From an uncultured delta proteobacterium (GTDB lineage Bacteria; Desulfobacterota; Binatia; Binatales; Binataceae): DNA of 64,000 nt. The stretch is from positions 4,241,937-4,305,936 of the forward strand of contig OY970324.1 in the NCBI GenBank assembly GCA_963717005.1, written 5' to 3'. Below the pieces are notes generated by a model. That model was not told where the DNA came from. It saw nothing but the letters and a program-made list of their open reading frames with translations, and did no database searches. This document shows positions 4,591 to 19,936 of this stretch, piece after piece. The position numbers were made by a program, and so were the translations under genes. The first letter of the stretch is position 1; each line of letters starts with the position of its first letter.

Positions 4591-4639
4591 TTATTTGGGA
4601 CAGAATTTGTTAGAAGTGTTGGCGTCGCAGGAGAGAAAA

Positions 4640-5491: not shown

Positions 5492-5624
5492 GGGAATCGG
5501 GAAACAATTTTCATTTGACTTGACGCTCTTAACCGCTCCTCGTCCCAGAAACCTGTCGTATAACCCAACCCACAACTCTTCCCCCAATGTCATTCAGAGC
5601 CGCCGCGGCGAAGAATCCTTCTGT

Positions 5625-5663
5625 TCCCCTCTCCTGAAGGGAGAGGGGCGAGGGGTGAGGTCG
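5625..5663 (+). repeat. REP-like palindromic element, family 2, copy c (CCCCTCTCCtgaaGGGAGAGGGG + GAGGGGTGAGGTC)
   Basis: Related copy at 39832-39874. Confidence 0.55.
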
Positions 5664-5786
5664 CGCGCGATTTAAGATTTTGCTTGCGTCCGAGCACGCT
5701 CTCATCCCTGCCCGCGACCGCCACAGGAGTTCAGGGATGAACTGTTCAGCCTGATGTTCTCGCACCATGAATGTTACGATTCTCGA

Positions 5787-6467: not shown

Positions 6468-6569
6468 CGGAACGAAGCTACCGATAGGGGTATGCTATCG
6501 TCAGACCCCAACCTGTAGTAGGAACTGCCCCTCCTCAGACAAGTCTGGCAACGGGATGGCTCGGCAATG

Positions 6570-6710
6570 CTAACGGTTGACACTGCGCTTGAGGGGGGTA
6601 ATCTGCATTGGGATCCGCTCGGGGAAGCCGGTGAAAGGCCGGCGCTGCCCCGCAACTGTGAGTTGAGCGTTTACGACGCTCATCGAGTCAGGCGACCGGG
6701 CGAATCGATG
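6570..6710 (+). ncRNA. Cobalamin (B12) riboswitch
   Basis: The core at 6621-6662 (GGGGAAGCCGGTGAAAGGCCGGCGCTGCCCCGCAACTGTGAG) matches the conserved cobalamin-riboswitch core. A B12-box-like AGTCAGGCGACCGGGC lies at 6686-6701. It sits in the 5' leader of the TonB-like gene. Confidence 0.7.
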
Positions 6711-6841
6711 GAGCCGTACGAACCTTCGCGGGAGAGGGAGGCTTCAGGAGTTTTGTGGCTACAGCTGGCGTTTGAATTGCCGCGTAGCCGTCGCTCCTGG
6801 CCACTTCCATTTCAATCCGCGAAGTTCGGGCCGAAGCGACG

Positions 6842-7639
6842 TTGGACAACGAAAACAAATCGCATCCTCTATATGACTCGACGGTCGCGCGATCGCGCGG
6901 TCACGTCGCGTCGTTCGCAGCCTCGATTGCCGCGCATGCGGCAATCGTTGCGTTGATCGTGTGTTTCGCGTCGCCGGTTGCCCGCGGGCATAGCGAGTGG
7001 GTGCTGGCGTATCTGGTCGAGGGCGCGGACGGCGGCATCGGAAGCAGGGGCGCGAGCGTGGCGCCGCACGCGGCGGCACGCTCGGCGCCGCCGAAGGCGG
7101 CGCGCAAAGCGCGACGGCGCGTCGAAGACGCGCCGCTCGCGGTCGCGAGCGTTGCGCCGCAGCGTCGGGTCGCGCTGACGCGACCGATCGCGCCGGCGCC
7201 TGACGCACCGGCCGTGTCGCATGGCGACAACGAAACGGCCGGTGCGCATCCCGCCACGGCCGGTTCCGGCAGCGGCGGGACGAACCGCGGCGCGGCAGGA
7301 TCGTCCGCCGGCGCCGCCAATCGCGGCGCCGGCGACGACCCCAATTCCGTCGCCCATGCCGACTACGCCAGCAATCCGCCCCCCATCTATCCCGAAGCCG
7401 CGCGCCGCCGCGAGCAGCAGGGCACCGTCACCATCAGGGTGCTGGTCGGCGCCGACGGCGCCGTCGAGCGCGCCGAGTTGGCCGAGTCTTCCGGCTTCGA
7501 TTCGCTCGACGACGCCGCCCTCGAAACCGTCCGTTCCCGTTGGCGCTTTGTGCCCGCGCGACACGGCGGCCTCGCGGTCGAAAGCTGGGTCCTGGTTCCG
7601 ATACGATTCGCCTTGCTCGAAGCCAGCGCCGTTCGCTGA
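6842..7639 (+). CDS. Energy transducer TonB-family protein (C-terminal TonB domain)
   Basis: N-terminal TM anchor, Pro/Ala-rich linker, and C-terminal YPEAARRREQQGTVTIRVLVGADGAVERAEL...WRFVPA. The start is uncertain. Confidence 0.7.
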   Translation: MDNENKSHPLYDSTVARSRGHVASFAASIAAHAAIVALIVCFASPVARGHSEWVLAYLVEGADGGIGSRGASVAPHAAARSAPPKAARKARRRVEDAPLAVASVAPQRRVALTRPIAPAPDAPAVSHGDNETAGAHPATAGSGSGGTNRGAAGSSAGAANRGAGDDPNSVAHADYASNPPPIYPEAARRREQQGTVTIRVLVGADGAVERAELAESSGFDSLDDAALETVRSRWRFVPARHGGLAVESWVLVPIRFALLEASAVR

Positions 7640-7708
7640 GGCCCCGACGCCAACCGTGCTTATCCCGCCAAGCCGTGATATAAGCCCCATCCGAGGAGGG
7701 TAGGAAAG

Positions 7709-8221
7709 ATGGCCTCGAAAGCATGTACTACTCTGGCGGTGGCTGGCTTGATGGTTGCCGGGGCGATTCTTGCGCCCATCCGCGCAAGCGCGATCGAAGT
7801 CAAGAAGGATCTCTACAACAATAGCGGTCCGGCGGGTCCGAGCGCCGCGGGCCCCGCCAGGGAAAATCCCATCCCAAAGGCGCTGGCCAGTCAGCTCAGC
7901 GACACTATCGCAAGTGAGTCCGACAGTTACGTCAGCGACGAGAGCGAGAAGAAGTCGTCGGGCAAGACCTACGTCGATCTCGAGCACGCGAAATTTCTGT
8001 ATCTGCCGACGATGAAGGCGGGGCATTGGACCGTACTCGCGAAGCTGCAGGCGGCCGAGTACACCCCGTCCAAGAGCGGCGAGGGCAGGGGCAGGCCGAC
8101 CGGCAAGCAGAAGATCCTGGTGTTCAACTACCGCCTCGACGGCAACAAATGGACCGAAGTCGAGCAGCCGAAGTGGGAAGACGTTGACGTCACCGGCACG
8201 GCGGCGGCAGCCCATAAATAG
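7709..8221 (+). CDS. Secreted hypothetical protein (signal peptide, 170 aa)
   Basis: N-terminal MASKACTTLAVAGLMVAGAILAPIRASA. Probably co-transcribed with the TonB-like gene. Confidence 0.55.
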   Translation: MASKACTTLAVAGLMVAGAILAPIRASAIEVKKDLYNNSGPAGPSAAGPARENPIPKALASQLSDTIASESDSYVSDESEKKSSGKTYVDLEHAKFLYLPTMKAGHWTVLAKLQAAEYTPSKSGEGRGRPTGKQKILVFNYRLDGNKWTEVEQPKWEDVDVTGTAAAAHK

Positions 8222-8278
8222 TTTTTCGGTGACGCAAATTTACTTCGCGGCGGAACCAAAAAATCCGGCGCGGTTAAC

Positions 8279-8710
8279 GTGAAGAAGAAAATACAGGACG
8301 ACCTCAAGGCCGCGATGAAGAGCGGCGACAAATTGCGCATGATGGCGTTGCGCGGTGTGCTGTCCGAGATCTCGCGCCTTGAGAAAGACGTTCGCCGCGA
8401 TCCCAATGACGCCGAGATCCTGCAAATCATCAAGCGTGAGCGGGCCAAGCGCGAAGAGTCGCTCGAGTTTGCGCGCAAGGCGGCGCGCCAGGACCTGATC
8501 GATCAGAACGAGACCGAGGCGAAGGTGCTCGAATCATATCTGCCGGCGGCGGCCTCGGCCGACGAAGTGCGCGCGGAAATCGCGGCGGCGATTGCGGCGG
8601 GCGCGACCCAGATGGGCCCGTTGATGAAAGCGCTGCGCGACAAGTTCGGCGCCGGTCTCGACGGCAAGACTGCCAGCGAGCTGGCCAAGGAAGCGCTCGC
8701 AAAAAAGTAA
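8279..8710 (+). CDS. GatB/YqeY domain-containing protein
   Basis: GTG start. The conserved YqeY-like helical pattern is present (KAAMKSGDK..LRGVLSEI). Confidence 0.7.
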   Translation: MKKKIQDDLKAAMKSGDKLRMMALRGVLSEISRLEKDVRRDPNDAEILQIIKRERAKREESLEFARKAARQDLIDQNETEAKVLESYLPAAASADEVRAEIAAAIAAGATQMGPLMKALRDKFGAGLDGKTASELAKEALAKK

Positions 8711-8717
8711 GCTTCGA

Positions 8718-9875
8718 ATGACAACTGGAAAAATCGAACCCTTCCGTGTCGAGGTGCCGGTCGAAGTGCTGGCCGACTTGCGCGCCCGTCTCAGCAGCAC
8801 GCGCTTTCCCGACGAGGTGCCCGATACCGGCTGGGAGTATGGGACCAATCTCGCCTACCTGAAGTCGTTGGTCGAGTACTGGCGGACCAGTTACGACTGG
8901 CGCGCGCATCAACGCGAGATCAATCGCTTCGCGCAATTCAAGGCGAACGTCGATGGACTCGGAATCCATTTCATCCACGAGCAAGGCAAGGGGCCGAATC
9001 CGAAACCGCTTCTGCTGATTCACGGATGGCCGGGATCGATCTACGAGTTCATGCGGATTATCCCGATGCTCACCGATCCGGCTGCGCACGGCGGCAATCC
9101 GAAGGACTCGTTCACCGTGATCGCGCCGTCGCTGCCCGGCTACGGATTTTCAGATCATCCGCGGGCGCGCGCGATGAATATCCAGGCGATGGCGGATCTG
9201 TTTCACAAGCTGATGACCGCGACGCTCGGCTACCAGCGCTACGCGGTGCAGGGCGGAGACTGGGGCGCGGCGATTACCTCGCGAATCGGCGAAGTGCACG
9301 CCGACAGCGTCTTCGGCATCCATATCAATATGATTGCGATCGGTCCCGCTGAAGGACGCGGCGCGTCCGAACTGACGCCCGAAGAGAAAGTGTTTCTCGG
9401 CGACCTGGAAAAATTCCGCACCGCCGAGACCGGCTACCAATGGATTCAGGGGACCAAGCCGCAGACGCTCGCGTACGGGCTGAACGATTCGCCGGCCGGA
9501 CTACTGGCATGGATCGTCGAGAAGTTTCGCACCTGGAGCGATTGTCACGGCGACCTCGAGAAGAGCTTCACGCGCGATCAGATACTGACCAACGTGATGA
9601 TCTATTGGATCACGCAGACGATTAATTCCTCGACGCGCCTGTACTACGAGGCGCGGCATCATCCGTGGCGCCTGAAGCCGGGGACCCGAATCGAGGCGCC
9701 GACCGCGGTTGCGCTGTTTCCGGGCGAATTGGTGCGTCCGCCGCGCCACTGGGCCGAGCGCGTATATAATGTACGGCGCTGGACGCTGATGCCGAAAGGC
9801 GGACACTTCGCCGCGATGGAAGAGCCGGCCCTGCTCGCCGCCGACCTGCGCGAATTTTACCGGGAGGTGGGCTGA
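8718..9875 (+). CDS. Epoxide hydrolase (microsomal EH-like alpha/beta hydrolase)
   Basis: EH N-terminal domain (PFRVEVP..RFPDE) and HGWPGSIYEF oxyanion-hole motif. Confidence 0.85.
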   Translation: MTTGKIEPFRVEVPVEVLADLRARLSSTRFPDEVPDTGWEYGTNLAYLKSLVEYWRTSYDWRAHQREINRFAQFKANVDGLGIHFIHEQGKGPNPKPLLLIHGWPGSIYEFMRIIPMLTDPAAHGGNPKDSFTVIAPSLPGYGFSDHPRARAMNIQAMADLFHKLMTATLGYQRYAVQGGDWGAAITSRIGEVHADSVFGIHINMIAIGPAEGRGASELTPEEKVFLGDLEKFRTAETGYQWIQGTKPQTLAYGLNDSPAGLLAWIVEKFRTWSDCHGDLEKSFTRDQILTNVMIYWITQTINSSTRLYYEARHHPWRLKPGTRIEAPTAVALFPGELVRPPRHWAERVYNVRRWTLMPKGGHFAAMEEPALLAADLREFYREVG

Positions 9876-9935
9876 GGGTTTTCAGTTTCCGCAAACCTCG
9901 GTCCGGTTATTTCTTTTTCCTGGTCGTGGCGCGGG

Positions 9936-9999
9936 ATCCTGACCTCTCCCGCAGACACCGCTGCACGGCTTACGCCGACCTCTCCTCGGACAAGGAGGG
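9936..9999 (+). repeat. REP-like palindromic element, family 1, copy b
   Basis: TCCTGACCTCTCCC and CTCTCCTCGGACAAGGAGGG are shared with 4531-4590. It lies between convergent genes. Confidence 0.6.
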
Positions 10000-10006
10000 T
10001 TGGGAC

Positions 10007-10480
10007 TTACCAGCCGAAGAAATCTTTCGCCGCGACGAACTTCGCGACGCCGGCGGCTTCGCCGGCCAGGCGATCCACTTCCTGATCGCCGACCATTGTG
10101 GACGCGGTCAGATCGACGCCGTACATCTCGGCGAGTTCGGTGATCATGCCGCCCCTGGGCTTGCGGCATTCGCAGTTGTCGGCGTCGATGTGCGGGCAGA
10201 TTTGCCAGCCGGTCAGAATGTCGCCGAGCTGATGGTCGAGCTGCGCGAGCGCGGCTTCGACATTTTCCGCCTTGAGCCGGCCGCGTGCGATTCCCGCCTG
10301 GTTGGTCACCACGAACATCAGATGGTCGTGCAGCGGGCGCAGCTTTTCCGCGACGCCCGGCAGCAGCTCGATTACGATATTGCCGTTACTGTCGAGCGGA
10401 ATCTCGCGCGACTCGTTCAGCTTGACCAAAGTGCCGCCGAGGTCGAAGAACAGCGCCGCGTTGCCGTTCGGGTTGGCCAT
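10007..10480 (-). CDS. HAD-IIIA phosphatase, D-glycero-D-manno-heptose 1,7-bisphosphate phosphatase (GmhB)-like
   Basis: LFFDLGGTLV, VVTNQAGIARG, and the Zn-binding CxC..CRKP signature. Confidence 0.75.
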   Translation of the reverse strand: MANPNGNAALFFDLGGTLVKLNESREIPLDSNGNIVIELLPGVAEKLRPLHDHLMFVVTNQAGIARGRLKAENVEAALAQLDHQLGDILTGWQICPHIDADNCECRKPRGGMITELAEMYGVDLTASTMVGDQEVDRLAGEAAGVAKFVAAKDFFGW

Positions 10481-10495
10481 GAAAAAAGATCTCGC

Positions 10496-11866
10496 CTAGG
10501 CGTGGCGCCAGTCAACGTGATCGCGAACGTGCGCGAACACTTCGTCCAGGATCTCGACGCCCGCCTCGGCCTGCGCTTCGGTGATCACGAGCGACGGGTT
10601 GATACGAATCTTGGGGAAATAGGCCATCGTGACCAGCCCGCGCTTGAGGCATTCGGCGAAGATCAGCTCGGTGACTTTTTTGCCGAGCAGTTCCTTGGTT
10701 TCGAGATCGCGCACCAGCTCGACGCCTATCAGCAAGCCCTTGCCCCGCACGTCGCCGATAAATTCGTATTTTTCCTTGAGCTGCACCAGCCGCGACAGCA
10801 TCATCGCGCCGACCTTGCGCGAGTTCTCGACCAGATGCTCGCGCTGAATCGTGGCGATCGTTTCGGACACCGCGACCGCCGCCATCGGATTTCCGCCGTA
10901 GCTCGACGACGACGCGCTCGGCTTGCCGAATGGCTCCGCTTTGCCCAGCTCGTCGCTCAGCAACACGCCCGAGACCGGAAAGCCCGAGCCCATGCCCTTG
11001 CCGACGGTGACGATATCGGGGCGGGTGCCGCTATGCTCGACGCCCCACCATTTGCCGGTGCGGCCGAAGCCGGTGATCATTTCGTCGGCGATCAGCAGCG
11101 CGCCGAAATCTTTGGCGACCGACTTTACCGCGGGCAGCCAGTCGTCGGGAGGAATCACGTTGCCGGCCGTGCCCTGCATCGGCTCGGCGACGATTGCGGC
11201 GAGCGAGCCGCCGCTGCTCATCTTGATTTGCTGGCGCGCAAAATCGACGCAGTAAAGTCCGCAATCGGGATATTTCAGCTTGAACGGGCATCGGTAGCAA
11301 TCGGCGTAGGGCACCGTGTACTGGCCGCCTTGCAGCGGTCCGTAGCCTTGCTTCGATTCGTCGCCGATAAGGCCGAGCACACCGCCGGTCTTGCCATGGA
11401 AGCCGCCCCAGAAACTCACCGCCTCATGATGGCCGGTTGCGGAACGCGCCAGGCGCAGCGCGGCTTCGACCGCCTCCGCGCCGCCGCTATATAGATGAGC
11501 GCGAGTCAGCCCCGCGGGTGCGACTTCTGCCAGCGCTTTGAACGCAGCCGCGCGCTCTTTGGTGGCGAAGGTGCCGACGGTGAGCCGCGCCGCCTGCTTG
11601 GACAGCGCATTCGCCATTGCGGGATGCGCATGGCCGAGGCTCGCGACGGCGACGCCGGCGAAGAAATCGACGTAGGTGTTGCCGTCGGCGTCAATGAGCG
11701 TCGCGCCCTCGCCGTGATCGAAGGCGAGGCCTGCGAGCAGTGAAATTCGCTGGCGGCCGGGGGCGATATATTTTTGTTCGAGGTCGAAGATCTCCTTCGA
11801 CCTGGGTCCCGGAACGGATGTTTTGATCGAGGGAAGTTTTCCGTTGGTGCTTGTGGTGGTCTTCAA
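10496..11866 (-). CDS. Class III (aspartate-aminotransferase family) PLP-dependent aminotransferase
   Basis: 456 aa. AT-III fold with a PLP-lysine region (DEMITGFGRTGKWWG). Confidence 0.85.
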   Translation of the reverse strand: MKTTTSTNGKLPSIKTSVPGPRSKEIFDLEQKYIAPGRQRISLLAGLAFDHGEGATLIDADGNTYVDFFAGVAVASLGHAHPAMANALSKQAARLTVGTFATKERAAAFKALAEVAPAGLTRAHLYSGGAEAVEAALRLARSATGHHEAVSFWGGFHGKTGGVLGLIGDESKQGYGPLQGGQYTVPYADCYRCPFKLKYPDCGLYCVDFARQQIKMSSGGSLAAIVAEPMQGTAGNVIPPDDWLPAVKSVAKDFGALLIADEMITGFGRTGKWWGVEHSGTRPDIVTVGKGMGSGFPVSGVLLSDELGKAEPFGKPSASSSSYGGNPMAAVAVSETIATIQREHLVENSRKVGAMMLSRLVQLKEKYEFIGDVRGKGLLIGVELVRDLETKELLGKKVTELIFAECLKRGLVTMAYFPKIRINPSLVITEAQAEAGVEILDEVFAHVRDHVDWRHA

Positions 11867-11908
11867 TTGATAGCGTTCCGAATCCTTGTTTGAATTTGCG
11901 TCGCGATG

Positions 11909-12730
11909 CTAGCGCGCGCGGCCGAGCAGACTTAGCGCACGGCGCGCGATCGCGCGAGCGGCCGGTGCGCGCACCCGACTGTAGCTGGGCCAGTCGTTGA
12001 AATCGATAATCGCGAAACGATCGCCGCTCAGGACCGCGTCGCCGCCCCACGCCTGGAGACCGAGCGCGCCGGCGGCGGCAGTCGCTGCCTCCGAGAGCGC
12101 GCGCACCGCGGCTTCGGGGACTTCCTCGCCCTCGGGATGAACGCTGAAATGCGCGCCGCCGCTGACGCCGTAAAATTTTACGACGCGGCCGGCGACTTCC
12201 TGCTGCAGGTAGGCGAAGCGGACTCCGCGCCGCGTGAAGTCCGCGAGAATCGATTCGACTTCGGCGCGATCGGCCGCCCGCTGTACGTCCTCGGGCGCGA
12301 GTGCATGCAAGTCGCCGCGCTTGACGAATACCCCCGCCGACAAATCGAGGCCGGCCAGCTTGCGCGCATCGAGCGGCTCGTCGGCAGGTACCAGCGCGCC
12401 CGCGGGCGTGGGTACCCCGGCGCTCTCGAGTCCGGCGGCGAGCAAGTCGCGGTAGCAGTTGCGAATCGAGAGCGCGGAGTTGATAGAGATCGCGCCGGCC
12501 TGCTCGACTTCAGCCAGCCGCTTGAGCGCGCGCGGCCCCTGGCACATCGGCAGAACGAGATCGGCGCGTACTGGTGCGCCCGCGGCGAAGCTGGCCGCGT
12601 CCATCGCCTGGATCTCGACCCCTTCACGCTTCAGCTCGGACAAGACCGCGTCGAGAATCGCGGCGTCGGCCTCGACCTTGCCGGGCGAAAACTCAGGTTC
12701 CCGATAAATTCCCAAAGCTCGATTGCTCAT
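11909..12730 (-). CDS. ATP-grasp domain protein, resembling the inositol-polyphosphate kinase (ITPK1-like) branch
   Basis: 273 aa. Central VKRGDLHA and C-terminal IIDFNDWPSY are similar to the ATP-grasp Mg/ATP loop (IDINAFPGY type). The assignment is tentative. Confidence 0.5.
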   Translation of the reverse strand: MSNRALGIYREPEFSPGKVEADAAILDAVLSELKREGVEIQAMDAASFAAGAPVRADLVLPMCQGPRALKRLAEVEQAGAISINSALSIRNCYRDLLAAGLESAGVPTPAGALVPADEPLDARKLAGLDLSAGVFVKRGDLHALAPEDVQRAADRAEVESILADFTRRGVRFAYLQQEVAGRVVKFYGVSGGAHFSVHPEGEEVPEAAVRALSEAATAAAGALGLQAWGGDAVLSGDRFAIIDFNDWPSYSRVRAPAARAIARRALSLLGRAR

Positions 12731-13458
12731 GGCGTCTTCCGTATTGCGCGGCGTGCGGCCTCGAGGTCCGACGCTTCATCCACGTCGATCGTTCCTTGGA
12801 GCTCGATCGCATCGAGCCGCATCCCACGTGCGATTAGCAGCGCGAGGAAGCGGCGGAGTGCGTCAAGGCCGGCGCGGCGCGCGTCGGCGGCGTGATCGAA
12901 AATTCCGGTTGACAGGAAATAAACTCCCGCCGTCACGGTTGAAGTCTGACGGTTGCCCAGCCCGAGGATCAAGCCATTTTCTGTTACATCTGCAAAAAGC
13001 GGCCGGGCCTCGCCGCGCCATCGGGTGACGGCCAGCACGCCGGCGAGATTTTTCTCGCGGCACTCCTCGATTTTCCTGCGCGACTCATTAACAAAACGCG
13101 CGAGTTCACTCTGCGGAATTACGGCGTCCACCGTCGAGGCGATAAACCATCCCGGTTCGAGCACCTCGCCGAGCGCGAGCATCGTTTCCATCGAGTTGGC
13201 GGTATCGCGCACGACGAGACGAATCGGCGGCGCAATCTCGAGGGCAATTTTATTTTCCCCGGCGATACGCGCGGTCTCGGAGTTGATCACCGCGACCACC
13301 GACGAGGCGCCCGCGCCGAGCAGCGCGCGAGCCTGACGCGCGAGCATTGTCTCGCCGCCGAGCATGACCAGCGGCTTGGGGAGGTCGTCGCGGGTGGAGC
13401 TGCGCAGGCGTTCGCCGCGGCCGGCGGCAATTATCGCACCCTGTAATTCCTTCACCAT
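12727..13458 (-). CDS. Nucleotidyltransferase (sugar/cyclitol-phosphate cytidylyl- or guanylyltransferase, NTP_transf_3-like)
   Basis: N-terminal GAIIAAGRGERL matches the GxGxRL signature. Overlaps its neighbours by 4 and 7 nt, indicating an operon. Confidence 0.75.
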   Translation of the reverse strand: MVKELQGAIIAAGRGERLRSSTRDDLPKPLVMLGGETMLARQARALLGAGASSVVAVINSETARIAGENKIALEIAPPIRLVVRDTANSMETMLALGEVLEPGWFIASTVDAVIPQSELARFVNESRRKIEECREKNLAGVLAVTRWRGEARPLFADVTENGLILGLGNRQTSTVTAGVYFLSTGIFDHAADARRAGLDALRRFLALLIARGMRLDAIELQGTIDVDEASDLEAARRAIRKTP

Positions 13459-14180
13459 TGGATTTGCGCAATTTCATCGATACTTCGGATCAAGACGTCG
13501 GCGGCGGCAGAATCTTCACCGGGTCGCGGATCGGTGCGGAGCCATACCGTGCGCATTCCGAGTTTGCGCGCGGGCACGCAATCTTTTTTCAGCGAATCGC
13601 CGATCATCGCGGCCGATTCCGGGGCGCATTGTAAATTTTTAAGAGCGTGCTGGAAAATTCCCTCGTCGGGTTTGAAAATTCCGACGCGCGACGAATCGGC
13701 GACCGCTGCGAAAAATCGATCCAGCTTCGCCTCTTCGAGGATGCGATCGAGATTGCCGTAGAAGTTCGACACGATGCCCATCCTGAAACGGCTTTTGAGT
13801 GGGCCCAGAACCGCGCGGCTGTGCGCGAGACCGGCCGCCGTTTCGCGGACGAAGGAGTTGGTGACGGCCTCGACCAAGCGATGGCGTCCCGCAGCGCCGG
13901 AGTCGTCGAGCGCCACGCGCAGCAGGTCGGGACCGCTTTTGCGTAGGTATTCGAATTGGTGGCCGGCGAGAAATCGCACCAGGTCCGTCATCCCGAAGCG
14001 CGAGACTACGCGCGTTGCGCCGTAGCCGATTCGCGTCGCGTGATCGAAGGCGGGGTCGAGTTCGGCGCGCGCAATTTCGATTCCAGCCGCGCGGTAGCTC
14101 GACAGAAAGCGGTCAAGCCAATGCGCAGGCCCGTCAAGCGTGCCGCCGAAATCGAATAGCAGAGTGGTAATCGTGGCCAT
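13452..14180 (-). CDS. HAD family hydrolase (phosphatase)
   Basis: LLFDFGGTLDG motif I, with downstream SNF (motif II) and GDSLKKD (motif IV). Confidence 0.75.
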   Translation of the reverse strand: MATITTLLFDFGGTLDGPAHWLDRFLSSYRAAGIEIARAELDPAFDHATRIGYGATRVVSRFGMTDLVRFLAGHQFEYLRKSGPDLLRVALDDSGAAGRHRLVEAVTNSFVRETAAGLAHSRAVLGPLKSRFRMGIVSNFYGNLDRILEEAKLDRFFAAVADSSRVGIFKPDEGIFQHALKNLQCAPESAAMIGDSLKKDCVPARKLGMRTVWLRTDPRPGEDSAAADVLIRSIDEIAQIQW

Positions 14181-14369
14181 GAAACGGTCAGTTTACCAGC
14201 CCGAGTCGTCAGCCTCCAGTTTCGACGGGGTCAGGTGCCGCACCTATCAACAGCCGGGCTCATAATTGACGGTTGACGCTATCAGCGGGGCTACTTCCGC
14301 TGTGGTTTCCGCTATGTTACCGTTGCCGATCAATGATGGCGGTGGAAACCGGGCCCTAGTAAGACGACG

Positions 14370-15554
14370 TTGATTGAAACTGCCTTAATCGCCGCTCCTG
14401 ACCGCGCGGACAATGCGGTATTCGGCCGCCCGCTGTTAGAGCGGCTGATGATCAACTGCGAGCGCGCCGGGATTAAACGATTCGTCATCGCAGCGCCGCG
14501 TGAGAATTATTCGGACGTCGCGCGCGCGATGGGCCGGTTCAAAAATTTGGACTGCGTCTCGATGGTCGAGTCGTTCGACAAGATTCTGAATCCAACCGAT
14601 GCACAGGAATTGGGCATCGACCCGTCGTCGCCGTGCGTGTCTTTCTCGGGCAATCTGGTATTTGCGAAGTCTCAACTGAAGCAGATTCTCGACGCCCACG
14701 CTTCGAATCCGCAATCGGTACATCGGGCAGTCAGCACCGACCAGGACCGCGGCGGCGAAATTGCGACCGGACGAATCGCGGAGATCCTGAAGCGCGGCGG
14801 CATTTCCAATAGCGTCACGAGGCCGGCGGCGAGCCTGCTGCCTTTTGCGCTGAACGGGCGGCCCGAGGATCGCGAAGAAGCGGAGCTGCGGCTGGCGAAA
14901 TCGATTCGCGAGGAATCGGCGCATAAGGACGCGCCGATGGCGCGATGGGTGGACCGTAAGATTTCCTGGCGCATCAGCTATTGGCTCGCAACGCACACGC
15001 GCGCCACGCCGAACATGGTCACGGTTGCGAACACGATGTTCGGGATTGGGTGCGCGTGGATGTTCGCGGTTCCGAATTACTGGATGCGGCTGTTCGCCGC
15101 GATTTTCTTTTTGATCTCGATCACAATCGACGGGGTCGATGGCGAATTGGCGCGGCTCAAGATGGTAGAGAGCGATTTCGGCGGCCGACTCGACATCGCC
15201 ACGGACAACATCGTGCACGCCGCGGTATTCGTCGGCCTGCTGATCGGATGCTACCGGGTCGAGCACAGCCGCGCTTACCTGTACCTGATTCCGTTGCTGC
15301 TCGGCGGATTCGCAATGTGCGCTTACGCCACGTGGCGCGCCTTCGAGATAAGGGGCGCGCAGGCGGCAGCCTGGCTCGACAAAGTCGATCGATGGAGCGG
15401 GCGCGATTTCGCCTACCTGCTCGTGGTATTGGCCTTAATTAATCGGCTAGAGTACTTCGCCTGGGGGACGGCATTTGGCACCTATGTGTTTGCCTTCGTC
15501 CTGATTTGGATTACCGGCCGGACCGCGTCGTCAATGAAGACTGAAAGCCTGTAG
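14370..15554 (+). CDS. Fusion protein: N-terminal nucleotidyltransferase-like domain (signature degenerate) plus C-terminal CDP-alcohol phosphatidyltransferase membrane domain
   Basis: The C-terminal half has DGVDGELARLKMVESDFGGRLDIATDNIVH, which matches DG(x2)AR(x8)G(x3)D(x3)D. Several TM helices are predicted. In the N-terminal half the position of the GxGxR motif reads ALIAAPDRADN. Confidence 0.75.
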   Translation: MIETALIAAPDRADNAVFGRPLLERLMINCERAGIKRFVIAAPRENYSDVARAMGRFKNLDCVSMVESFDKILNPTDAQELGIDPSSPCVSFSGNLVFAKSQLKQILDAHASNPQSVHRAVSTDQDRGGEIATGRIAEILKRGGISNSVTRPAASLLPFALNGRPEDREEAELRLAKSIREESAHKDAPMARWVDRKISWRISYWLATHTRATPNMVTVANTMFGIGCAWMFAVPNYWMRLFAAIFFLISITIDGVDGELARLKMVESDFGGRLDIATDNIVHAAVFVGLLIGCYRVEHSRAYLYLIPLLLGGFAMCAYATWRAFEIRGAQAAAWLDKVDRWSGRDFAYLLVVLALINRLEYFAWGTAFGTYVFAFVLIWITGRTASSMKTESL

Positions 15555-15587
15555 GAAAGGAATCGAGGCCTGCATGGCGGAGGAAGT

Positions 15588-16919
15588 ATGAACGGCAAGA
15601 AGCCACGAATTCTCCTGGTGCAACCCACCACCGTCCATCTGGACGGCACACCGCACAAAACGCGCTGGCGGCTGATAATGGGTCTCATGATTCCGCTGAT
15701 GGCGGGACTGACGCCCGACGACTACGACGTGACGCTGTGCGACGAACGCCTCGAGGACATCAACTTCGACGGCGGATGGGACCTGGTCGGGATGACGACG
15801 ACGATCGGCGCGTCGCTGCGCGCGTATCAGCTCGGCGACGAGTTCCGCAAACGCGGCATCCCGGTGGTGTTCGGCGGATTCCATGCGACGCTGCAGACCG
15901 AAGAAGCGCTGCATCATTGCGACGCGGTGGTGAAGGGCGAGGCCGACCTGGTGTGGCCCGAGCTGCTGCAGGATTGGCGCGACGGCAAGCTCAAGCAGAT
16001 TTACAAAGCCGACAAGGTGCACGATCTGAAAAACCTGCCGCGCCCGCGCCACGAGCTGCTCAAGCTCAACCGCTACCTGTTCAAGGCGGTGCCGGTGCAG
16101 GCGAGCCGCGGCTGCCCGTATCGATGCTCGTTTTGCGAGATTCCGGTGTTCTACGACGGCGCGTATCGCACGCGTCCAATCGAGGACATCGTCGAGGAGA
16201 TCAAGCAGGTCATGAAGGTGACCGGCTTCAAGCGCTTCCAGTTTATCGACGATCAAATTACGGGCAAGCACAAGTTCGCGCGCGAGCTGTTCAAGGCGCT
16301 CGAGCCCCTCAACATCCGCTTCTCGTGCCTGTGGACGATCAACTCGAATCATGACGACGAGCTGCTCGACCTGGCGGCCAAGGCGGGAATCTTCCACGTC
16401 AATATCGGGGTGGAATCGATCAGCCAGGACAGCCTGCTGTCGATGAACAAGATTCAGAATCACGCGGGGCAGTACAAGAAGCTGCTCAAGAAGCTGGAAA
16501 AATACGGAATCTACTACTCGCTCAATTTCCTGTTCGGGCTGGAAGAAGATCACCCGGGAATTTTCGACGACACGCTGAAGTTCCTGCACGAGGTCAAGGC
16601 GCCCGAGGCGTTCTTCAACACCGTGACGCCGCGGGTCGGCACGCCGATGCGCACGCAGCTCGAGAACGAAGGCCGCGTGATAATCCCCGACGCCGACCTC
16701 TACACCAACAACTTCCGCTGCATGTTCGTGCCCAAGAACATGTCGCCGCAGGAAGTCGAGGAAGGCGTGTGGCGTTGCACCAAGGAGTTCTACTCGCTGA
16801 AGTCGATGTTCAAGCGGCTGCTGCTGCCGCCGGGCAAGTTCACCTGGCAGGGACTGACCGAGAACATGCTCTTCTATTGGGGCGCGAAGCGACAGATCGA
16901 TCCGGTTGATTATTATTAG
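15588..16919 (+). CDS. B12-binding domain radical SAM enzyme
   Basis: N-terminal Rossmann-like B12-binding region followed by CPYRCSFC (CxxxCxxC). Confidence 0.85.
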   Translation: MNGKKPRILLVQPTTVHLDGTPHKTRWRLIMGLMIPLMAGLTPDDYDVTLCDERLEDINFDGGWDLVGMTTTIGASLRAYQLGDEFRKRGIPVVFGGFHATLQTEEALHHCDAVVKGEADLVWPELLQDWRDGKLKQIYKADKVHDLKNLPRPRHELLKLNRYLFKAVPVQASRGCPYRCSFCEIPVFYDGAYRTRPIEDIVEEIKQVMKVTGFKRFQFIDDQITGKHKFARELFKALEPLNIRFSCLWTINSNHDDELLDLAAKAGIFHVNIGVESISQDSLLSMNKIQNHAGQYKKLLKKLEKYGIYYSLNFLFGLEEDHPGIFDDTLKFLHEVKAPEAFFNTVTPRVGTPMRTQLENEGRVIIPDADLYTNNFRCMFVPKNMSPQEVEEGVWRCTKEFYSLKSMFKRLLLPPGKFTWQGLTENMLFYWGAKRQIDPVDYY

Positions 16920-16938
16920 AGCATAGGCCAGTTCGGCT

Positions 16939-17253
16939 TTGATCCTGAAGACGCTCGCGGTCCTGGTGCTCGCCGCGGCACTCGAGGTGGGCGGCGATGC
17001 GCTAGTCCGCATAGGACTACATAGCTACGGCTACTCGCTCGCGGCGGGCGCGTTCGCGCTTTTCTGCTACGGGGTGCTGGTCAACCAGAGCGGCGTCGAT
17101 TTCAACCGCCTGATGGGCATCTACATCGCGGTGTTTTTCGTGGTGTCACAGGTAATCTCGCTGATTCTCTTCAAGCAAGTCCCCGACGACCGAATCCTGC
17201 TTGGCGGCGGCTTCATAGTAACCGGCGGCCTGTTGATTCTGTTGATGACGTGA
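16939..17253 (+). CDS. Small 4-TM membrane protein, YnfA/SMR-like (DMT superfamily)
   Basis: 104 aa with a TTG start. Hydrophobic, with a conserved Glu in TM1 (ALEVGGD). 20 nt downstream of the rSAM gene. Confidence 0.5.
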   Translation: MILKTLAVLVLAAALEVGGDALVRIGLHSYGYSLAAGAFALFCYGVLVNQSGVDFNRLMGIYIAVFFVVSQVISLILFKQVPDDRILLGGGFIVTGGLLILLMT

Positions 17254-17399
17254 CCGCGCCGCGAAACCACGGCAAACTTGCTAGAGCTGCCGCGGGTTTG
17301 AGGCGGCCACGGAGAGTATAGCGAGGTCAGTTGTTGTCGCTGCCAGAACCGGAACCGTTGCCGCCGTTTTCGTGGAAAAAATCGGTCCCTCGATCAGGA

Positions 17400-17633
17400 T
17401 TAGCGGGCAATGACGAACCCTGAGAGTTTGATCCGTTCGAACCCGCCGCCGGCCTGAGTCGAGGCTCCTTCGCTGCTAGGACTTTGCGTGGCGGTGTTCG
17501 ACTCCGAATTCACTGTATTGGCCTGCTGGTGGACGTTGTCACCAGTGTCTTGAGAAAAAGAACGTCCGCTGGATGCGACCAATAGGAAGGCTGGTCGTCA
17601 ACAGTGAAATACTAAAAAAGAAGCGGTTCATGA
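17400..17633 (-). pseudogene. Possible frameshifted small secreted protein (signal peptide MNRFFFSISLLTTSLPIG in one frame; S/T/Q-rich 60-aa ORF in the next frame)
   Basis: An ATG with a signal-peptide-like N-terminus at about 17630 runs into a stop after 31 codons. The adjacent frame continues as ORF 17400-17582. Confidence 0.25.
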
Positions 17634-17755
17634 TTTCCCTTCCCTATTGGTTACAGTTTCAAATCTTGGGCGGGCGGGCTCCTTGATAACGCGAATAGAT
17701 TCGAAATCGGAGTGCATCGGAGCGGCGTTCATCAAAACAAATGCTGATCCGCGCA

Positions 17756-18367
17756 TCAGAATAAATCGTCGAGTGCCAATGAATATTGGAAGCGGACGAA
17801 GCGATCGGCCGTGCCGTTCAGTTCTGCGCCAACGTCGAAGTCCAGAAGCTGCCTATCTGTTATCGTGCACTCGGCACCGCCGCCGACAGTCTGGCCGCCT
17901 AACGACTGATAAGAATAATTTCCGGTGTACTCTCCATACAGGCTGCCGCCAGAGTCGAGCTGCCTTTCGACAGTCAAAGTCGGTTCAGGGCCCGACCAAC
18001 TCGGAGAAGCCGTGCCATTAACGGTCCATCGGTCGTCGATCGGCTGTGACCAGGAGGGGACGTACGCAGAAGCAATGGAAGGATTGAAACCGCCGTTCCC
18101 TATTACCGGTCCGGTGCGATCCTGCCCACCCGCGCCCGGGATCGAAGCAGAGAAAGCGTTGCTCCCTGCTAGCGTCCCGGTGGAATCTAGCGAGCCTATG
18201 CTTGGCACAGAGGGAAGGCTATAAGAATTAGTCCGGATTCTCCGATGTGTGGTCCGATGACTGAAACTGGCGCGATAACCCATGTCGGCACTGTAGCCGC
18301 GGGCAAATCGACGCTCATGCCCCAAGCTACGGAGAGTCTTGCTGTCCAAAGAATCTCTCGAAACCAA
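17756..18367 (-). CDS. Hypothetical OMP-like protein fragment (G/S/T/Y-rich, C-terminal Phe)
   Basis: Alternating hydrophobic pattern and terminal ...FQYSLALDDLF typical of beta-barrel OMPs. No signal peptide, so possibly truncated or mis-started. Lower-GC region. Confidence 0.35.
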   Translation of the reverse strand: MVSRDSLDSKTLRSLGHERRFARGYSADMGYRASFSHRTTHRRIRTNSYSLPSVPSIGSLDSTGTLAGSNAFSASIPGAGGQDRTGPVIGNGGFNPSIASAYVPSWSQPIDDRWTVNGTASPSWSGPEPTLTVERQLDSGGSLYGEYTGNYSYQSLGGQTVGGGAECTITDRQLLDFDVGAELNGTADRFVRFQYSLALDDLF

Positions 18368-19667
18368 ACTCCTTTAAGGTCATCCTCACGCGATCCTGTT
18401 GCGTCATCTTTCGCGCGTTGGCGGGGCAAGCGGTGAGACAAGTTTCGTTTCCTGAGGTGCACGCGGAACAGGGGAGTTGATTGACAGAACACCCGCAGGG
18501 ATTGGTAAGACCCCCGGGTGTACATCCTATCGGGCCATAACAAAATCCTGTGCTGCCACCGCCGCCGGCGCTACCACCGCTACCACTTCCGCCACTAGAT
18601 GCAGCGTAAGCGCCGGCCGCGATCGCCCCACCCCCGAGTAAAACGCCACCTATGATCCAAGGAGCCCAGTTTGTGCCGCTGGAAGTTGATGTGCTCGATT
18701 GCACCGGTGGAAGCGGCGGAAAGTAGGGGGGCGGCGAAGAGGGTGGCGGATTCTCCGCAGTTTGCGGCGCACAGAACTGTCCGAGGCTGGTATTCAGGGA
18801 ATCAATGTCGGACATAATTCGCGACCGTGATTCAGAGAGTGAAGCAAGCGTGCGCTGGGCGTTGTTAATATCCTGCTGCGCAAGGTATCCCTTGCCCAAC
18901 GCGAAACCAACGTCTGTAACGACCTCTGTAACTTTGGTCGCGAGTATTGCCTCGGGTCCTAGAAGACCTGCCGCCGCGTCCGCAGTCTGGTTGCCGAGCG
19001 CGTCGTAGATTCCGCTATCGCCGAGGAATTTGTTGAATGCTTGGTACTGTTGGCTGATCTGCGTAGTTGCGGTCTGCAGTGACGTACCCAATGCGTTACC
19101 CGCCGTGTAGGAATCGCGGACGTTCTGCCAGTGGAGCGCGTATTCTTTGAGTCTCTTGAGCATTTCCACCGATGTAGTAATCGCGCTTTGGGAGACTCCT
19201 TTGGTAAGAAGGACTTGCTGCAGATTTTCCAGTTGGTTTGCTACCGCGCCGGATTGCGACGCGATTTCTGTGACCCCGGCGTCGGCCTGTTGGATCCCCG
19301 TCATGGCGAGATCGACTTCAGCTCTCGCTTTTTCCTCTATACCGCCTTGCAAAATGTTCTGCGTCCGCTTGATCGCATTGTCGATCGCGGGCAAACCAGC
19401 TTGGAGCCGATTGACAGCCGCAGTCATGTCTCCGCAACTGGCGGGCGCAACTGGTCCGCCGGGCGCCCCCGATTCCGGAGCGATCGGACTGCCGTTCCCG
19501 ATACCGGTGCCGCCGATCGACCCGCCTTCACCGGTGATCGGGGTGCCGTCCTGGGCGAAGACGTTAGTCAAGGGTGCGCCCATTGGCAGCATACATGCCG
19601 CCAAGATGAGACAGGTCAGTTTCTTGAGGAACCGTACCGATGCGCGTGACATTCTCAAGCTCGCCAT
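18327..19667 (-). CDS. Orphan secreted/membrane protein: signal peptide, about 330-aa helical Q/A-rich domain, Pro-rich linker, one TM helix, C-terminal 8-Cys cluster
   Basis: Strong RBS (AAAGGGGG) 7 nt upstream of the ATG. TM helix WAPWIIGGVLLGGGAIAAGAYAA. C-terminal CYGPIGC..CGC..CSAC..CLTAC. The local GC is clearly below the window average. Confidence 0.6.
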   Translation of the reverse strand: MASLRMSRASVRFLKKLTCLILAACMLPMGAPLTNVFAQDGTPITGEGGSIGGTGIGNGSPIAPESGAPGGPVAPASCGDMTAAVNRLQAGLPAIDNAIKRTQNILQGGIEEKARAEVDLAMTGIQQADAGVTEIASQSGAVANQLENLQQVLLTKGVSQSAITTSVEMLKRLKEYALHWQNVRDSYTAGNALGTSLQTATTQISQQYQAFNKFLGDSGIYDALGNQTADAAAGLLGPEAILATKVTEVVTDVGFALGKGYLAQQDINNAQRTLASLSESRSRIMSDIDSLNTSLGQFCAPQTAENPPPSSPPPYFPPLPPVQSSTSTSSGTNWAPWIIGGVLLGGGAIAAGAYAASSGGSGSGGSAGGGGSTGFCYGPIGCTPGGLTNPCGCSVNQLPCSACTSGNETCLTACPANARKMTQQDRVRMTLKEFGFERFFGQQDSP

Positions 19668-19936
19668 AACAATCCCCCTTTAGGAAAGGATATTGAATGA
19701 ACCGCAGCTAACCGAACGCCAAATGAACCGGCACGAATTAAGATCAGCGCCCTGAAGACAGGAGGTAGGGATCGTGGTTGAGAAGCGGGCGCACGCCGTT
19801 CAGCGGTGAAACCAAAGCATGACGCCAGAGTTAAGTCAAGCGACGACACTCAGTCATGAAGTTAACCAGACTGTGATAGCAAATCTACCAACTGATAGTT
19901 GACAGCTAATTGAAGCACTACGACAGGCAGCCTATG

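Follow-up and report, generated by a model that had tools for sequence, protein, structure and literature searches.

A conserved gene cassette of the Binataceae with a probable role in attaching a polar head group to a membrane lipid

Within a 64-kb stretch of DNA (the window) from an uncultured soil bacterium of the Binataceae (Candidatus Binatus), eight genes lie in two divergent operons and raise the question which product they make, a free solute or part of a membrane lipid. On the basis of the gene context in other genomes we lean, with some reservation, towards a Kennedy-type pathway that depends on a cytidine nucleotide and attaches a polar head group, most probably an aminated inositol or cyclitol, to a membrane lipid by a phosphodiester bond.

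All eight open reading frames were confirmed at their coordinates and strands (10007-17253, Table 1), and profile searches with Pfam and NCBIfam essentially bore out the gene families of the original prediction. The minus-strand genes had been described as tightly overlapping, which holds for g5/g4 (7 nt) and g4/g3 (4 nt; the g4 stop lies over the g3 start and the g4 start over g5), while at every other junction the genes lie 15-42 nt apart. A promoter scan of the intergenic region gave a score no better than shuffled sequences. As already predicted, there is no MIPS gene in the 64-kb window (tblastn). Neither hpn genes nor a GFO dehydrogenase or lipid-backbone genes are found in it, and the lack of MIPS, GFO dehydrogenase and lipid-backbone genes counts against a lipid head group.

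Table 1. Features of the locus (positions within the window).
Feature	Position	Strand	Description	Length
g1	10007..10480	-	small capless HAD-IIIA-type hydrolase	157 aa
g2	10496..11866	-	class III (omega-type) PLP aminotransferase	456 aa
g3	11909..12730	-	ATP-grasp enzyme, uncharacterised family	273 aa
g4	12727..13458	-	sugar/polyol-phosphate nucleotidyltransferase (NT), GRGERL...PKPL	243 aa
g5	13452..14180	-	HAD-IA hydrolase	242 aa
Intergenic region	14181..14369	.	separates the two divergent operons	189 bp
g6	14370..15554	+	AF2299/IPCT-DIPPS-type membrane CDP-alcohol phosphotransferase	394 aa
g7	15588..16919	+	cobalamin-type radical SAM enzyme	443 aa
g8	16939..17253	+	small four-helix membrane protein	

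About 80 loci were compared, which are the best tblastn matches and not a random sample. Synteny of g1-g7 is preserved in 17-19 of 20 Binataceae loci (about 18 genomes) at 45-95% amino-acid identity, and this arrangement is far beyond chance. A core module of HAD-IA hydrolase, NT, ATP-grasp and CDP-alcohol phosphotransferase was found in at least eight bacterial phyla. Its members are also fused to each other: NT and ATP-grasp in seven proteins, HAD, NT and ATP-grasp in one (P0283), ATP-grasp and CDP-alcohol phosphotransferase in another (P0371), and in one locus (L040) the ATP-grasp is fused to the aminotransferase. Because the genes are strongly co-conserved and partly fused, the two observations that had been named as speaking against the original prediction, missing co-conservation and a place of g6 in a phospholipid synthase clade with ATP-grasp and NT in unrelated families, were not made. 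With homologues in 17 of 20 Binatia loci and in none of the 61 others, g1 is a Binataceae-specific addition. The original set of eight genes has to be reduced at its other end: g8, which matches YnfA/UPF0060 only below threshold (21.4 bits, cut-off 24.9), has a homologue in just one of the 20 Binatia loci (L001, tblastn), so that its membership is doubtful.

The CDP-OH_P_transf domain of g6 (residues 213-367) carries an intact DGx2ARx8Gx3Dx3D motif, read straight from the sequence as DGVDGELARLKMVESDFGGRLDIATD, and six transmembrane helices are predicted. The cytoplasmic N-terminal domain is a degenerate NT-like domain, with Foldseek matches to CMP-Kdo synthetase, IspD and RmlA; as it lacks the GxGxR and PK motif on inspection, it is probably non-catalytic. 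The proposed fusion of an NT-like domain with a CDP-alcohol phosphotransferase is confirmed in its AF2299/IPCT-DIPPS-type architecture. The top NCBIfam matches are DIPPS, archaetidylinositol-phosphate synthase and PIP synthase, which all act on inositol phosphate, and this argues for an inositol head group. As to the closest relatives of g6, IPCT/DIPPS has soluble substrates and AF2299 is without a known one, which is a point against a lipid acceptor.

It is conceivable, but in our opinion quite improbable, that the locus makes a soluble, DIP-like phosphodiester as compatible solute: g4 would produce a CDP-polyol, g6 would join a second polyol phosphate to it, and a HAD would strip the remaining phosphate. 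The two-domain architecture and motif of g6 are those of DIPPS and Archaeoglobus fulgidus AF2299, a separate cytidylyltransferase-type enzyme (here g4) is present as well, and IPCT/DIPPS is the best match in Foldseek (4mnd, E 2.9e-7; AF2299 was also matched). By phmmer the best PDB sequence match is AF2299 (E 1e-13), followed by IPCT/DIPPS (E 6e-6). However, the best NCBIfam match, again IPCT/DIPPS, reaches 75 bits, far under the cut-off of 580, the GxGxR/PK residues are lost and MIPS is not adjacent here. DIP is a solute of hyperthermophiles and Binatus a soil lineage, which also counts against such a product.

Two HAD-type hydrolases would suit the final step of a DIP-like pathway, but both lack the Asp+2 residue, the general acid/base normally required by HAD phosphatases. 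In g5 (HAD-IA, E 7e-14) motif I reads DFGGT, with the nucleophilic Asp retained and Gly in place of Asp+2, and a census of 64 cassette homologues shows D-[FY]-G-G-T to be family-wide. In g1, which belongs to HAD-IIIA (TIGR01662, 73 bits, cut-off 44.6; TIGR01656, 87.8 bits, cut-off 84.2), it reads DLGGT. Phosphatase steps are therefore uncertain, also in the lipid reading, and the label "GmhB-like phosphatase" given to g1 lacks specific support, with 84 bits against a GmhB cut-off of 178.

The gene context of homologous cassettes points to lipids. MIPS lies beside the cassette in 23 of 36 Bacteroidota loci, where the order is MIPS, NT, ATP-grasp, CDP-alcohol phosphotransferase, LPG_synthase_TM and HAD, and also in Ignavibacteria, which supports the predicted link to inositol chemistry. 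In Runella and Dyadobacter (Cytophagales) the module is preceded by Spt (723 bits, cut-off 640), a GNAT and an epimerase-family gene; Spt and GNAT, a context of ceramide synthesis, are also present in Verrucomicrobiota loci. A single co-directional array in Ignavibacteriaceae (L027) comprises NT, MlaE, MlaF, MlaD, ATP-grasp, aminotransferase, CDP-alcohol phosphotransferase, a GFO dehydrogenase with IolG as best match, LPG_synthase_TM, HAD and MIPS. In 26 of 81 loci genes of the LPG_synthase_TM (MprF flippase) type occur together with the cassette. Several sister Binataceae have a MlaC/HpnM-like gene between the two operons next to g6 (matched to MlaC in Pfam with E 1e-19 for L003, and with homologues in L004, L005, L007, L013 and L018). 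Because homologous cassettes consistently lie among genes for lipid synthesis, flipping and transport, including the hopanoid genes described below, we favour a lipid head group, and the compatible-solute option of the original prediction is disfavoured.

Among the closest described counterparts is the putative alternative inositol lipid cluster of Phocaeicola (Bacteroides) vulgatus with an NTP transferase (BVU_RS13095), a CDP-alcohol phosphatidyltransferase (BVU_RS13105) and a HAD (BVU_RS13115) (Heaver et al. 2022, PMC9246714). All three are homologous to the proteins studied here, including the DxGGT motif of the HAD-IA, and the proposed logic, transfer of a CDP-activated head group to a lipid, is the same. 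Species carrying only this type of cluster produce inositol-phosphoceramide (PMC9246714), a further argument against a DIP-like solute. The locus had been called possibly undescribed; this is true only in part, as the core of NT, CDP-alcohol phosphotransferase and HAD had been noted as a putative cluster in B. vulgatus. The ATP-grasp is not discussed there (PMC9246714), although a member of the same family is encoded between NT and transferase in P. vulgatus ATCC 8482 (L049). Unlike the Binataceae locus, the B. vulgatus cluster adjoins MIPS and has neither a class III aminotransferase nor a HAD-IIIA or B12-radical SAM protein; its CDP-alcohol phosphotransferase is short (about 310-350 aa) and has no NT-like N-terminal domain.

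The aminotransferase g2 (Aminotran_3, E 1e-92) reaches the cut-off of no NCBIfam equivalog; its best PDB match is the GABA-AT-like protein 7vno (E 1e-73), and the aminotransferases encoded in the cassettes of Desulfobacterota, Verrucomicrobiota, Gemmatimonadales and Ignavibacteria have 45-59% identity to it. Outside Binatia, all 18 aminotransferase-positive loci of at least 7.8 kb contain a GFO/IDH dehydrogenase as well, compared with none of the 36 Bacteroidota loci having this pair, and this constant pairing suggests an aminocyclitol. In sister Binataceae a GFO/IDH-type dehydrogenase is encoded a few kb from the cassette. MIPS is widespread among Binataceae MAGs; in one of them (L082) it stands alone amid housekeeping genes with no adjoining CDP-OH_P_transf (PIP-synthase-type) gene.

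Catalytic motifs are intact in g3, g4 and g6. The NT g4 (NTP_transf_3, E 1.7e-9, with the GRGERL motif) is predicted to make the CDP-alcohol donor, with CTP as its presumed nucleotide. No Pfam or NCBIfam model covers the ATP-grasp family of g3, for which the earlier label "ITPK1-like" found no specific support; we predict a polyol/cyclitol(-phosphate) kinase or, with much lower probability, a ligase. A ligase might join an amino acid or another carboxylate either to a hydroxyl of the head group or to the amine formed by g2, and the aminoacylated head group would be exported by a MprF-TM-like flippase. The ATP-grasp~aminotransferase fusion and the LPG_synthase_TM genes are compatible with this idea, which we nevertheless hold to be very unlikely: conservation of the ATP-grasp is just as high in Bacteroidota cassettes without aminotransferase, and the lipid reported for such species is plain inositol-phosphoceramide (PMC9246714). 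Moreover, its commonest fusion partner is the NT, which by analogy would reflect the kinase-NT logic of salvage and heptose pathways.

In Desulfobacterota the cassette sits within hpn operons (HpnJ, HpnH, HpnA, HpnL/HpnN-like). In L040 genes for HpnI-like and HpnJ (746 bits, cut-off 578) proteins diverge from HpnA (509 bits, cut-off 368), HpnH (505 bits, cut-off 225), HAD, NT, ATP-grasp~aminotransferase, GFO, CDP-alcohol phosphotransferase, HpnL-like, an unassigned gene, OEP and HpnN-like. The genes for HpnJ and HAD show translational coupling in Desulfoferrobacter suflitae and three further loci, and in five loci of Desulfobacterota HpnN-like transporters come after the cassette. In Binataceae, HpnH (381 bits, cut-off 225) and a polyprenyl synthase are encoded 4-6 kb from g1 (L001, L003, L015, L016). 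The acceptor might hence be a hopanoid instead of a glycerolipid or ceramide: a phospho-(amino)cyclitol would be placed on C35 bacteriohopanepolyol, e.g. on the terminal hydroxyl of bacteriohopanetetrol, or HAD, oxidoreductase and aminotransferase would process (phospho)ribosylhopane. The HpnM-like MlaC next to g6 would agree with this, but the HpnL, HpnM and HpnN matches remain under the curated cut-offs, the window is free of hpn genes, and the Bacteroidota loci with MIPS and the Runella, Dyadobacter and Verrucomicrobiota loci with Spt have none either. Furthermore, the literature consulted describes no phosphate-linked hopanoid, and we know of none. Hopanoid clusters (HpnH, HpnI/J/K for the BHT cyclitol ether, HpnO, HpnL, HpnM, HpnN) share with the locus a B12-type radical SAM protein and a class III aminotransferase, to which class the hopanoid aminotransferase HpnO belongs (PMC12324291). 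Their known pathways, however, use a glycosyltransferase and neither NT, ATP-grasp nor CDP-alcohol transferase (PMC13459092, PMC12324291). In sum we consider hopanoid elaboration unlikely.

The radical SAM protein g7 (Radical_SAM, E 3e-18, with CxxxCxxC) has a B12-binding domain slightly under the cut-off (29.5 bits, cut-off 32.1) and none of its NCBIfam matches reaches the curated threshold (BchE 102 bits and PhpK 88 bits, both far below). An assignment to HpnJ was rejected (79.5 bits, cut-off 577.6), which is also a point against the hopanoid alternative; with the HpnJ linked to the cassette in D. suflitae, g7 shares 24% identity. Across Binataceae g7 is better conserved than any other gene of the locus (87-95% identity, neighbours 45-83%). 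As its rate of evolution is several times lower than that of the neighbouring genes, g7 may have a different function, which weakens the lipid reading.

Returning to the lipid head group, its synthesis would start from a cyclitol or polyol precursor, probably an inositol phosphate supplied by a MIPS whose gene would lie in another part of Binataceae genomes. This would be oxidised by a GFO/IDH-type dehydrogenase encoded outside this window and transaminated by g2, while the ATP-grasp g3 and the HADs g5 and g1 would set the phosphorylation state. From the phospho-alcohol and CTP g4 would form a CDP-alcohol, and the membrane protein g6 would move the phospho-alcohol onto a lipid alcohol (diacylglycerol, ceramide or hopanepolyol). 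Finally, g7 may alter head group or lipid via C-methylation or radical rearrangement. In this scheme it is our inference which alcohol is used, which lipid accepts it, in what order the steps follow and what g7 contributes, if anything.

Parts of such a route have parallels. In the NDP-heptose pathway a kinase (HddA/HldE), the HAD-IIIA phosphatase GmhB and a nucleotidyltransferase (HddC/HldC) act together, and scyllo-inosamine in streptomycin biosynthesis is formed by a dehydrogenase, an aminotransferase and a kinase. By analogy, kinase, HAD and NT could yield a nucleotide-activated polyol here, and GFO/IDH dehydrogenase and aminotransferase an aminocyclitol. Apart from the deviating g1, the differences are that the predicted kinase is an ATP-grasp and not of the GHMP, PfkB or APH type, and that the aminotransferase is class III and not DegT-type. 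A CDP-activated donor for a bacterial non-glycerolipid is known from the ceramide diphosphoglycerate of Caulobacter, where CpgD, a soluble IMPCT-like cytidylyltransferase, makes CDP-glycerate (PMC12275187). In contrast to our proposal the head group is phosphoglycerate; no ATP-grasp, HAD or aminotransferase is named among the cpg genes, the term CDP-alcohol is absent, and the transferase CpgA is without established activity (PMC12275187).

The four-gene core, which includes a never-studied enzyme family, the ATP-grasp, is spread over at least eight phyla.

The eight ORFs of the locus lie exactly where the original prediction had placed them (see table), and most of the families proposed for them were recovered with Pfam and NCBIfam: g1 is a HAD-IIIA protein, g2 a class III aminotransferase (E 1e-92), g4 a nucleotidyltransferase (NT) with the GxGxRL signature, g5 a HAD-IA protein and g6 a CDP-alcohol phosphotransferase with a long N-terminal extension. 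In the same searches the small protein g8 resembles YnfA-like membrane proteins with a sub-threshold score. Close homologues are annotated as Candidatus Binatus or Binataceae, and the GC content is uniform throughout the locus. Co-conservation was found for g1 to g7, which are syntenic in 17-19 of 20 Binatia loci with 45-95% identity and form a unit. The order of all eight genes is kept in a 74%-identical relative; among the 20 loci a g8 homologue is present in the closest relative only.

Coordinates of the cluster, its surroundings and features of homologous loci (L numbers)
Sequence	Feature	Position (strand)	Remark
window	luciferase-like ORF	4562-5491	family by Pfam
window	cobalamin riboswitch RF00174	6622-6697 (+)	50.8 bits (Rfam); directly 5' of the TonB_C-domain ORF
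window	TonB_C-domain ORF	6842-7639	
window	antisense ORF	9926-11494 (+)	522 aa, over g1/g2
window	g1	10007-10480 (-)	HAD-IIIA
window	g2	10496-11866 (-)	class III aminotransferase
window	g3	11909-12730 (-)	ATP-grasp
window	g4	12727-13458 (-)	NT
window	g5	13452-14180 (-)	HAD-IA
window	g6	14370-15554 (+)	CDP-OH transferase, NT-like N-domain
window	antisense ORF	15531-17012 (-)	493 aa, over g7
window	g7	15588-16919 (+)	radical SAM
window	g8	16939-17253 (+)	small membrane protein
window	two ORFs, 203 and 446 aa	17756-19667 (-)	between cluster and panC; no Pfam match
window	panC, panB	19937-21792 (-)	separate, overlapping genes
window	tRNA gene	29371-29444 (+)	unrelated to cluster
window	TPP riboswitch	40197-40300 (-)	72.6 bits; unrelated to cluster
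L001	panC/panB	13591-15273	called as one 560-aa fusion (Pantoate_transf + Pantoate_ligase)
L040	cassette in hopanoid operon	3811-19949	Desulfobacterales MAG
L063	PfkB-family sugar kinase	13674-14654	after cassette

Unrelated housekeeping genes flank the cluster. One side carries G6PD, an oxidoreductase of the luciferase type, a TonB gene preceded by a cobalamin riboswitch, YqeY and an epoxide hydrolase; the other has two genes without known function and panC/panB. The longer of these two ORFs (446 aa) has a signal-peptide-like N-terminus and C-terminal stretches rich in Gly/Ser and Cys. Some 8 kb separate the cobalamin riboswitch from the radical SAM gene g7. Riboswitch and TonB gene lie between the luciferase-like gene and g1, which adjoin each other in L001, a Binataceae locus. 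Within the locus Rfam detects no riboswitch, promoter and terminator sites between 9700 and 17900 are no more numerous than in shuffled sequence, and the divergent intergenic region between g5 and g6 holds only short, unconvincing repeats. Both antisense ORFs were rejected as genes: they are artefacts of high GC, and their translations are of low complexity and rich in Arg/Ala.

Four of the genes, encoding HAD-IA, NT, ATP-grasp and CDP-OH transferase, constitute a module which is not confined to Binatia. A scan of the GTDB species genomes for the ATP-grasp family confirmed at least 595 among 600 candidates. In the best 80 loci HAD-IA, NT and ATP-grasp occur together, and the CDP-OH transferase is found in 69 of 81 loci (all gene counts across loci are based on tblastn). 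These best loci come from Binatota, Desulfobacterota, Verrucomicrobiota, Gemmatimonadales, Ignavibacteria, Elusimicrobiota, Bdellovibrionales and Bacteroidota, so that the module extends beyond gut Bacteroidota to at least eight phyla. Gene fusions tie the pathway steps together: seven proteins combine NT and ATP-grasp, P0283 combines HAD, NT and ATP-grasp, P0371 links ATP-grasp to the CDP-OH transferase, and in L040 ATP-grasp is fused to the aminotransferase (718 aa). The HAD-IIIA protein of the g1 type and the B12-radical SAM enzyme of the g7 type are restricted to Binatia within the loci compared.

The genetic neighborhood of the homologous cassettes is informative. In Sphingobacterium the order is MIPS-NT-ATP-grasp-CDP-OH transferase-LPG_synthase_TM-HAD, where MIPS is myo-inositol-1-phosphate synthase, a gene found in 23 of the 36 Bacteroidota loci among the best 80. 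Phocaeicola vulgatus ATCC 8482 has the same gene order, in agreement with the locus-tag spacing of BVU_RS13095, 13105 and 13115. These three genes were described by Heaver et al. as a "putative alternative inositol lipid cluster", for which CDP-inositol formation and transfer to lipid were proposed but not confirmed; inositol-phosphoceramide was reported in species with the alternative cluster alone, and the ATP-grasp protein was not discussed (PMC9246714). The window shares with that cluster the grouped homologous NT, CDP-alcohol phosphatidyltransferase and HAD genes: g4, g5 and g6 are 24-34% identical (tblastn) to their counterparts in P. vulgatus, Sphingobacterium, Runella and other loci, in conserved order and with ATP-grasp between NT and transferase. 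However, the B. vulgatus-type cluster has MIPS in its immediate vicinity (PMC9246714), whereas tblastn finds none in the 64-kb window, as originally stated, and none in 19 of 20 Binatia loci. In the Binataceae locus L016, MIPS is found about 5 kb past the g7 homologue. The gene is widespread among Binataceae MAGs; in one of them (L082) its neighbours are housekeeping genes, and no CDP-OH_P_transf gene of the PIP-synthase type adjoins it, so that another part of the genome must supply a consumer of inositol phosphate.

The module of Runella and Dyadobacter is preceded by serine palmitoyltransferase (Spt; 723 bits, cut-off 640), a GNAT gene and an epimerase-family gene, and Spt and GNAT are also present in the Verrucomicrobiota loci. 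In L027 (Ignavibacteriaceae) the co-directional array reads NT-MlaE-MlaF-MlaD-ATP-grasp-aminotransferase-CDP-OH transferase-GFO/IDH dehydrogenase (best match IolG)-LPG_synthase_TM-HAD-MIPS. Desulfobacterota harbour the cassette within hopanoid operons, adjacent to bona fide HpnJ, HpnA and HpnH; the cassette-linked radical SAM proteins of L023 and L040 pass the HpnJ model with 739 and 746 bits (cut-off 577.6), and the flanking HpnI-, HpnL-, HpnM- and HpnN-like proteins all score under their cut-offs. In L040 genes for HpnI-like and HpnJ diverge from HpnA-HpnH-HAD-NT-(ATP-grasp~aminotransferase)-GFO-CDP-OH transferase-HpnL-like-?-OEP-HpnN-like. Sister Binataceae have an MlaC/HpnM-like gene between the g6 and g5 homologues and, beyond g1, luciferase-like, GFO/IDH, TetR, HpnH (381 bits, cut-off 225) and polyprenyl synthase genes, a stretch that has been rearranged away in the window. 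tblastn searches of the window for GFO/IDH, HpnH/A/I/N, Spt, a GNAT ceramide-synthase-like gene and LPG_synthase_TM found none. The contexts of the cassette in other genomes all concern lipid synthesis, flipping or transport, and none indicates a compatible solute. A PfkB-family sugar kinase gene follows the cassette in L063, L075, L049 and L077; in Runella and Dyadobacter, which have no adjacent MIPS, this kinase could be an inositol kinase feeding the pathway.

Homologues of the aminotransferase g2 exist in every non-Bacteroidota group (45-59% identity). Among the best 80 loci, aminotransferase and GFO/IDH genes occur together in all 18 aminotransferase-positive non-Binatia loci of at least 7.8 kb and in none of the 36 Bacteroidota loci (tblastn). 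A dehydrogenase followed by an aminotransferase is the standard route from a hydroxyl group to an amine. This pair shares an array with MIPS in Ignavibacteria, L024 and L046, and the simplest interpretation is therefore a head group of the inosamine type.

With its intact catalytic motif D(x)2DG(x)2AR(x)8G(x)3D(x)3D, present as DGVDGELARLKMVESDFGGRLDIATD, and 50.1 bits against PF01066 (cut-off 22), g6 belongs to the CDP-alcohol phosphotransferase superfamily. It was rejected as PgsA, PIP synthase and archaetidylinositol-phosphate synthase (26, 46.4 and 51.1 bits versus cut-offs of 109, 170 and 180), so that a place in one of these phospholipid synthase clades, which would have spoken against the original prediction, was not obtained; indeed it stays far below every curated NCBIfam cut-off. 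Protein searches with g6 and g7 were saturated by matches to Binataceae relatives. The proposed similarity to IPCT/DIPPS, the system for di-myo-inositol phosphate (DIP), is partly borne out, as AF2299 (E 1e-13) and IPCT/DIPPS are matched in sequence and fold. However, the NF041135 model scores 75.4 bits instead of 580, and its match is confined to the transferase half (residues 184-379). The N-terminus of g6, ALIAAPDRADNAVFGRPLL, contains neither GxGxR nor PK. Its fold is NT-like according to Foldseek (CMP-Kdo synthetase, IspD and RmlA at E 1e-3 to 5e-2, with a model pLDDT of only 68.6), but the GxGxR...PK motif of the functional NT domain of IPCT/DIPPS is lost, and the domain is probably not competent as a cytidylyltransferase. 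As the neighbours of the homologous cassettes are all lipid-related, we regard a DIP-like solute as distinctly unlikely.

The ATP-grasp protein g3 retains the ATP-binding Lys, the Mg-binding D/E-x-N motif and the fold, and is a member of this superfamily. The specific label ITPK1-like could not be maintained, since g3 has neither a PF05770 match nor a structural preference for inositol-phosphate kinases, and structure comparison did not separate kinase from ligase. We nevertheless favour a kinase, because NT is the usual fusion partner of ATP-grasp. The family, for which neither Pfam nor NCBIfam has a model, comprises at least 886 clusters at 50% identity (E <= 1e-3), 568 of them with E <= 1e-10.

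Both HAD proteins replace the DxDxT motif I by D-x-G-G-T, retaining the nucleophile Asp and lacking the general acid/base Asp+2. In g1 the motif is DLGGT (DLAGT in some relatives) rather than DxDGT, and as the GmhB scores of g1, 84.3 and 63 bits, fall short of 178 and 149.6, the label GmhB-like first suggested is not supported. In g5 it is DFGGT, and D-[FYML]-G-G-T is found in 61 of 64 cassette HAD homologues across phyla. Elsewhere, dehalogenases, phosphonatase and P-type ATPases typically lack Asp+2. Neither protein passes as a standard HAD phosphatase with DxD in motif I; therefore the assignment is not secure, and g1 and g5 may not be simple phosphatases.

The g7 protein scores 66.8 bits against PF04055 (cut-off 29.5), with CxxxCxxC present as CPYRCSFC, and 29.5 bits against the B12-binding PF02310 (cut-off 32.1). 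Its best NCBIfam relatives are all B12-radical SAM families, and with the B12-binding domain at the borderline g7 is a probable radical SAM enzyme of the B12 type. It stays below the cut-offs of all curated NCBIfam families matched; HpnJ (TIGR03471, 79.5 bits versus 577.6), BchE, PhpK, HpnR, the ladderane-lipid radical SAM family and AprD4, each far under its cut-off, were rejected, and identity to the cassette-linked HpnJ is only 24%. Among Binataceae (L001-L018) g7 is 87-95% identical, compared with 45-83% for the neighbouring cluster genes, which suggests either unusually strong constraint or a role that is in part unrelated to the cluster. The first gene of the Desulfobacterota cassette operon, 5' of HAD, encodes HpnJ (L021-L023, L029) or an archaeal-type MIPS (L024, L031, L060), both of which are cyclitol-forming enzymes. 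That a B12-radical SAM enzyme substitutes for MIPS is no more than a weak lead, as the Prevotellaceae loci L061 and L070 carry MIPS together with an HpnJ-like radical SAM protein (177 bits).

Taken together, the observation behind the original prediction holds and its pathway idea is supported only in part. With slightly better than even confidence we propose that the cluster encodes a Kennedy-type, CDP-activated route, which would place a phospho-(amino)cyclitol head group on a lipid. The hopanoid operons of Desulfobacterota make a hopanoid acceptor a serious, if improbable, variant of this proposal. A more elaborate version is rather doubtful: the module would be a head-group machine which in Binatota and Desulfobacterota adds phospho-aminocyclitol to a non-glycerolipid, possibly bacteriohopanepolyol, with ATP-grasp as a new cyclitol(-phosphate) kinase and with HpnJ (Desulfobacterota) or g7 (Binatia) remodelling or C-methylating the cyclitol ring. 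If bacteriohopanepolyol were the acceptor, the product would be a phosphate-linked hopanoid, to our knowledge a lipid class without report in the literature.

The core module has been noticed before and never characterised. Nothing relevant was found in the literature on inosamine lipids or on MIPS combined with ATP-grasp and CDP-alcohol transferase, and the Binatota genome paper does not mention hopanoids or inositol. The ATP-grasp family, the form with aminotransferase and dehydrogenase, the link to hopanoids and the Binatia-only HAD-IIIA and B12-radical SAM proteins thus appear to be undescribed in the literature searched. The alternative route to bacterial inositol lipids, put forward in 2022 and still unconfirmed, gains in the ATP-grasp family a missing, universally conserved component. 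The module is wired to three lipid backbones, namely ceramide, glycerolipid/Mla transport and hopanoid, and its variant with aminotransferase and dehydrogenase predicts aminocyclitol lipids not yet described. The pathway is testable in culturable carriers such as P. vulgatus, Sphingobacterium multivorum, Runella defluvii, Dyadobacter endophyticus and Desulfoferrobacter suflitae. For the Binatota, an uncultured and globally distributed phylum, it would be a first clue to the lipid chemistry of the envelope.
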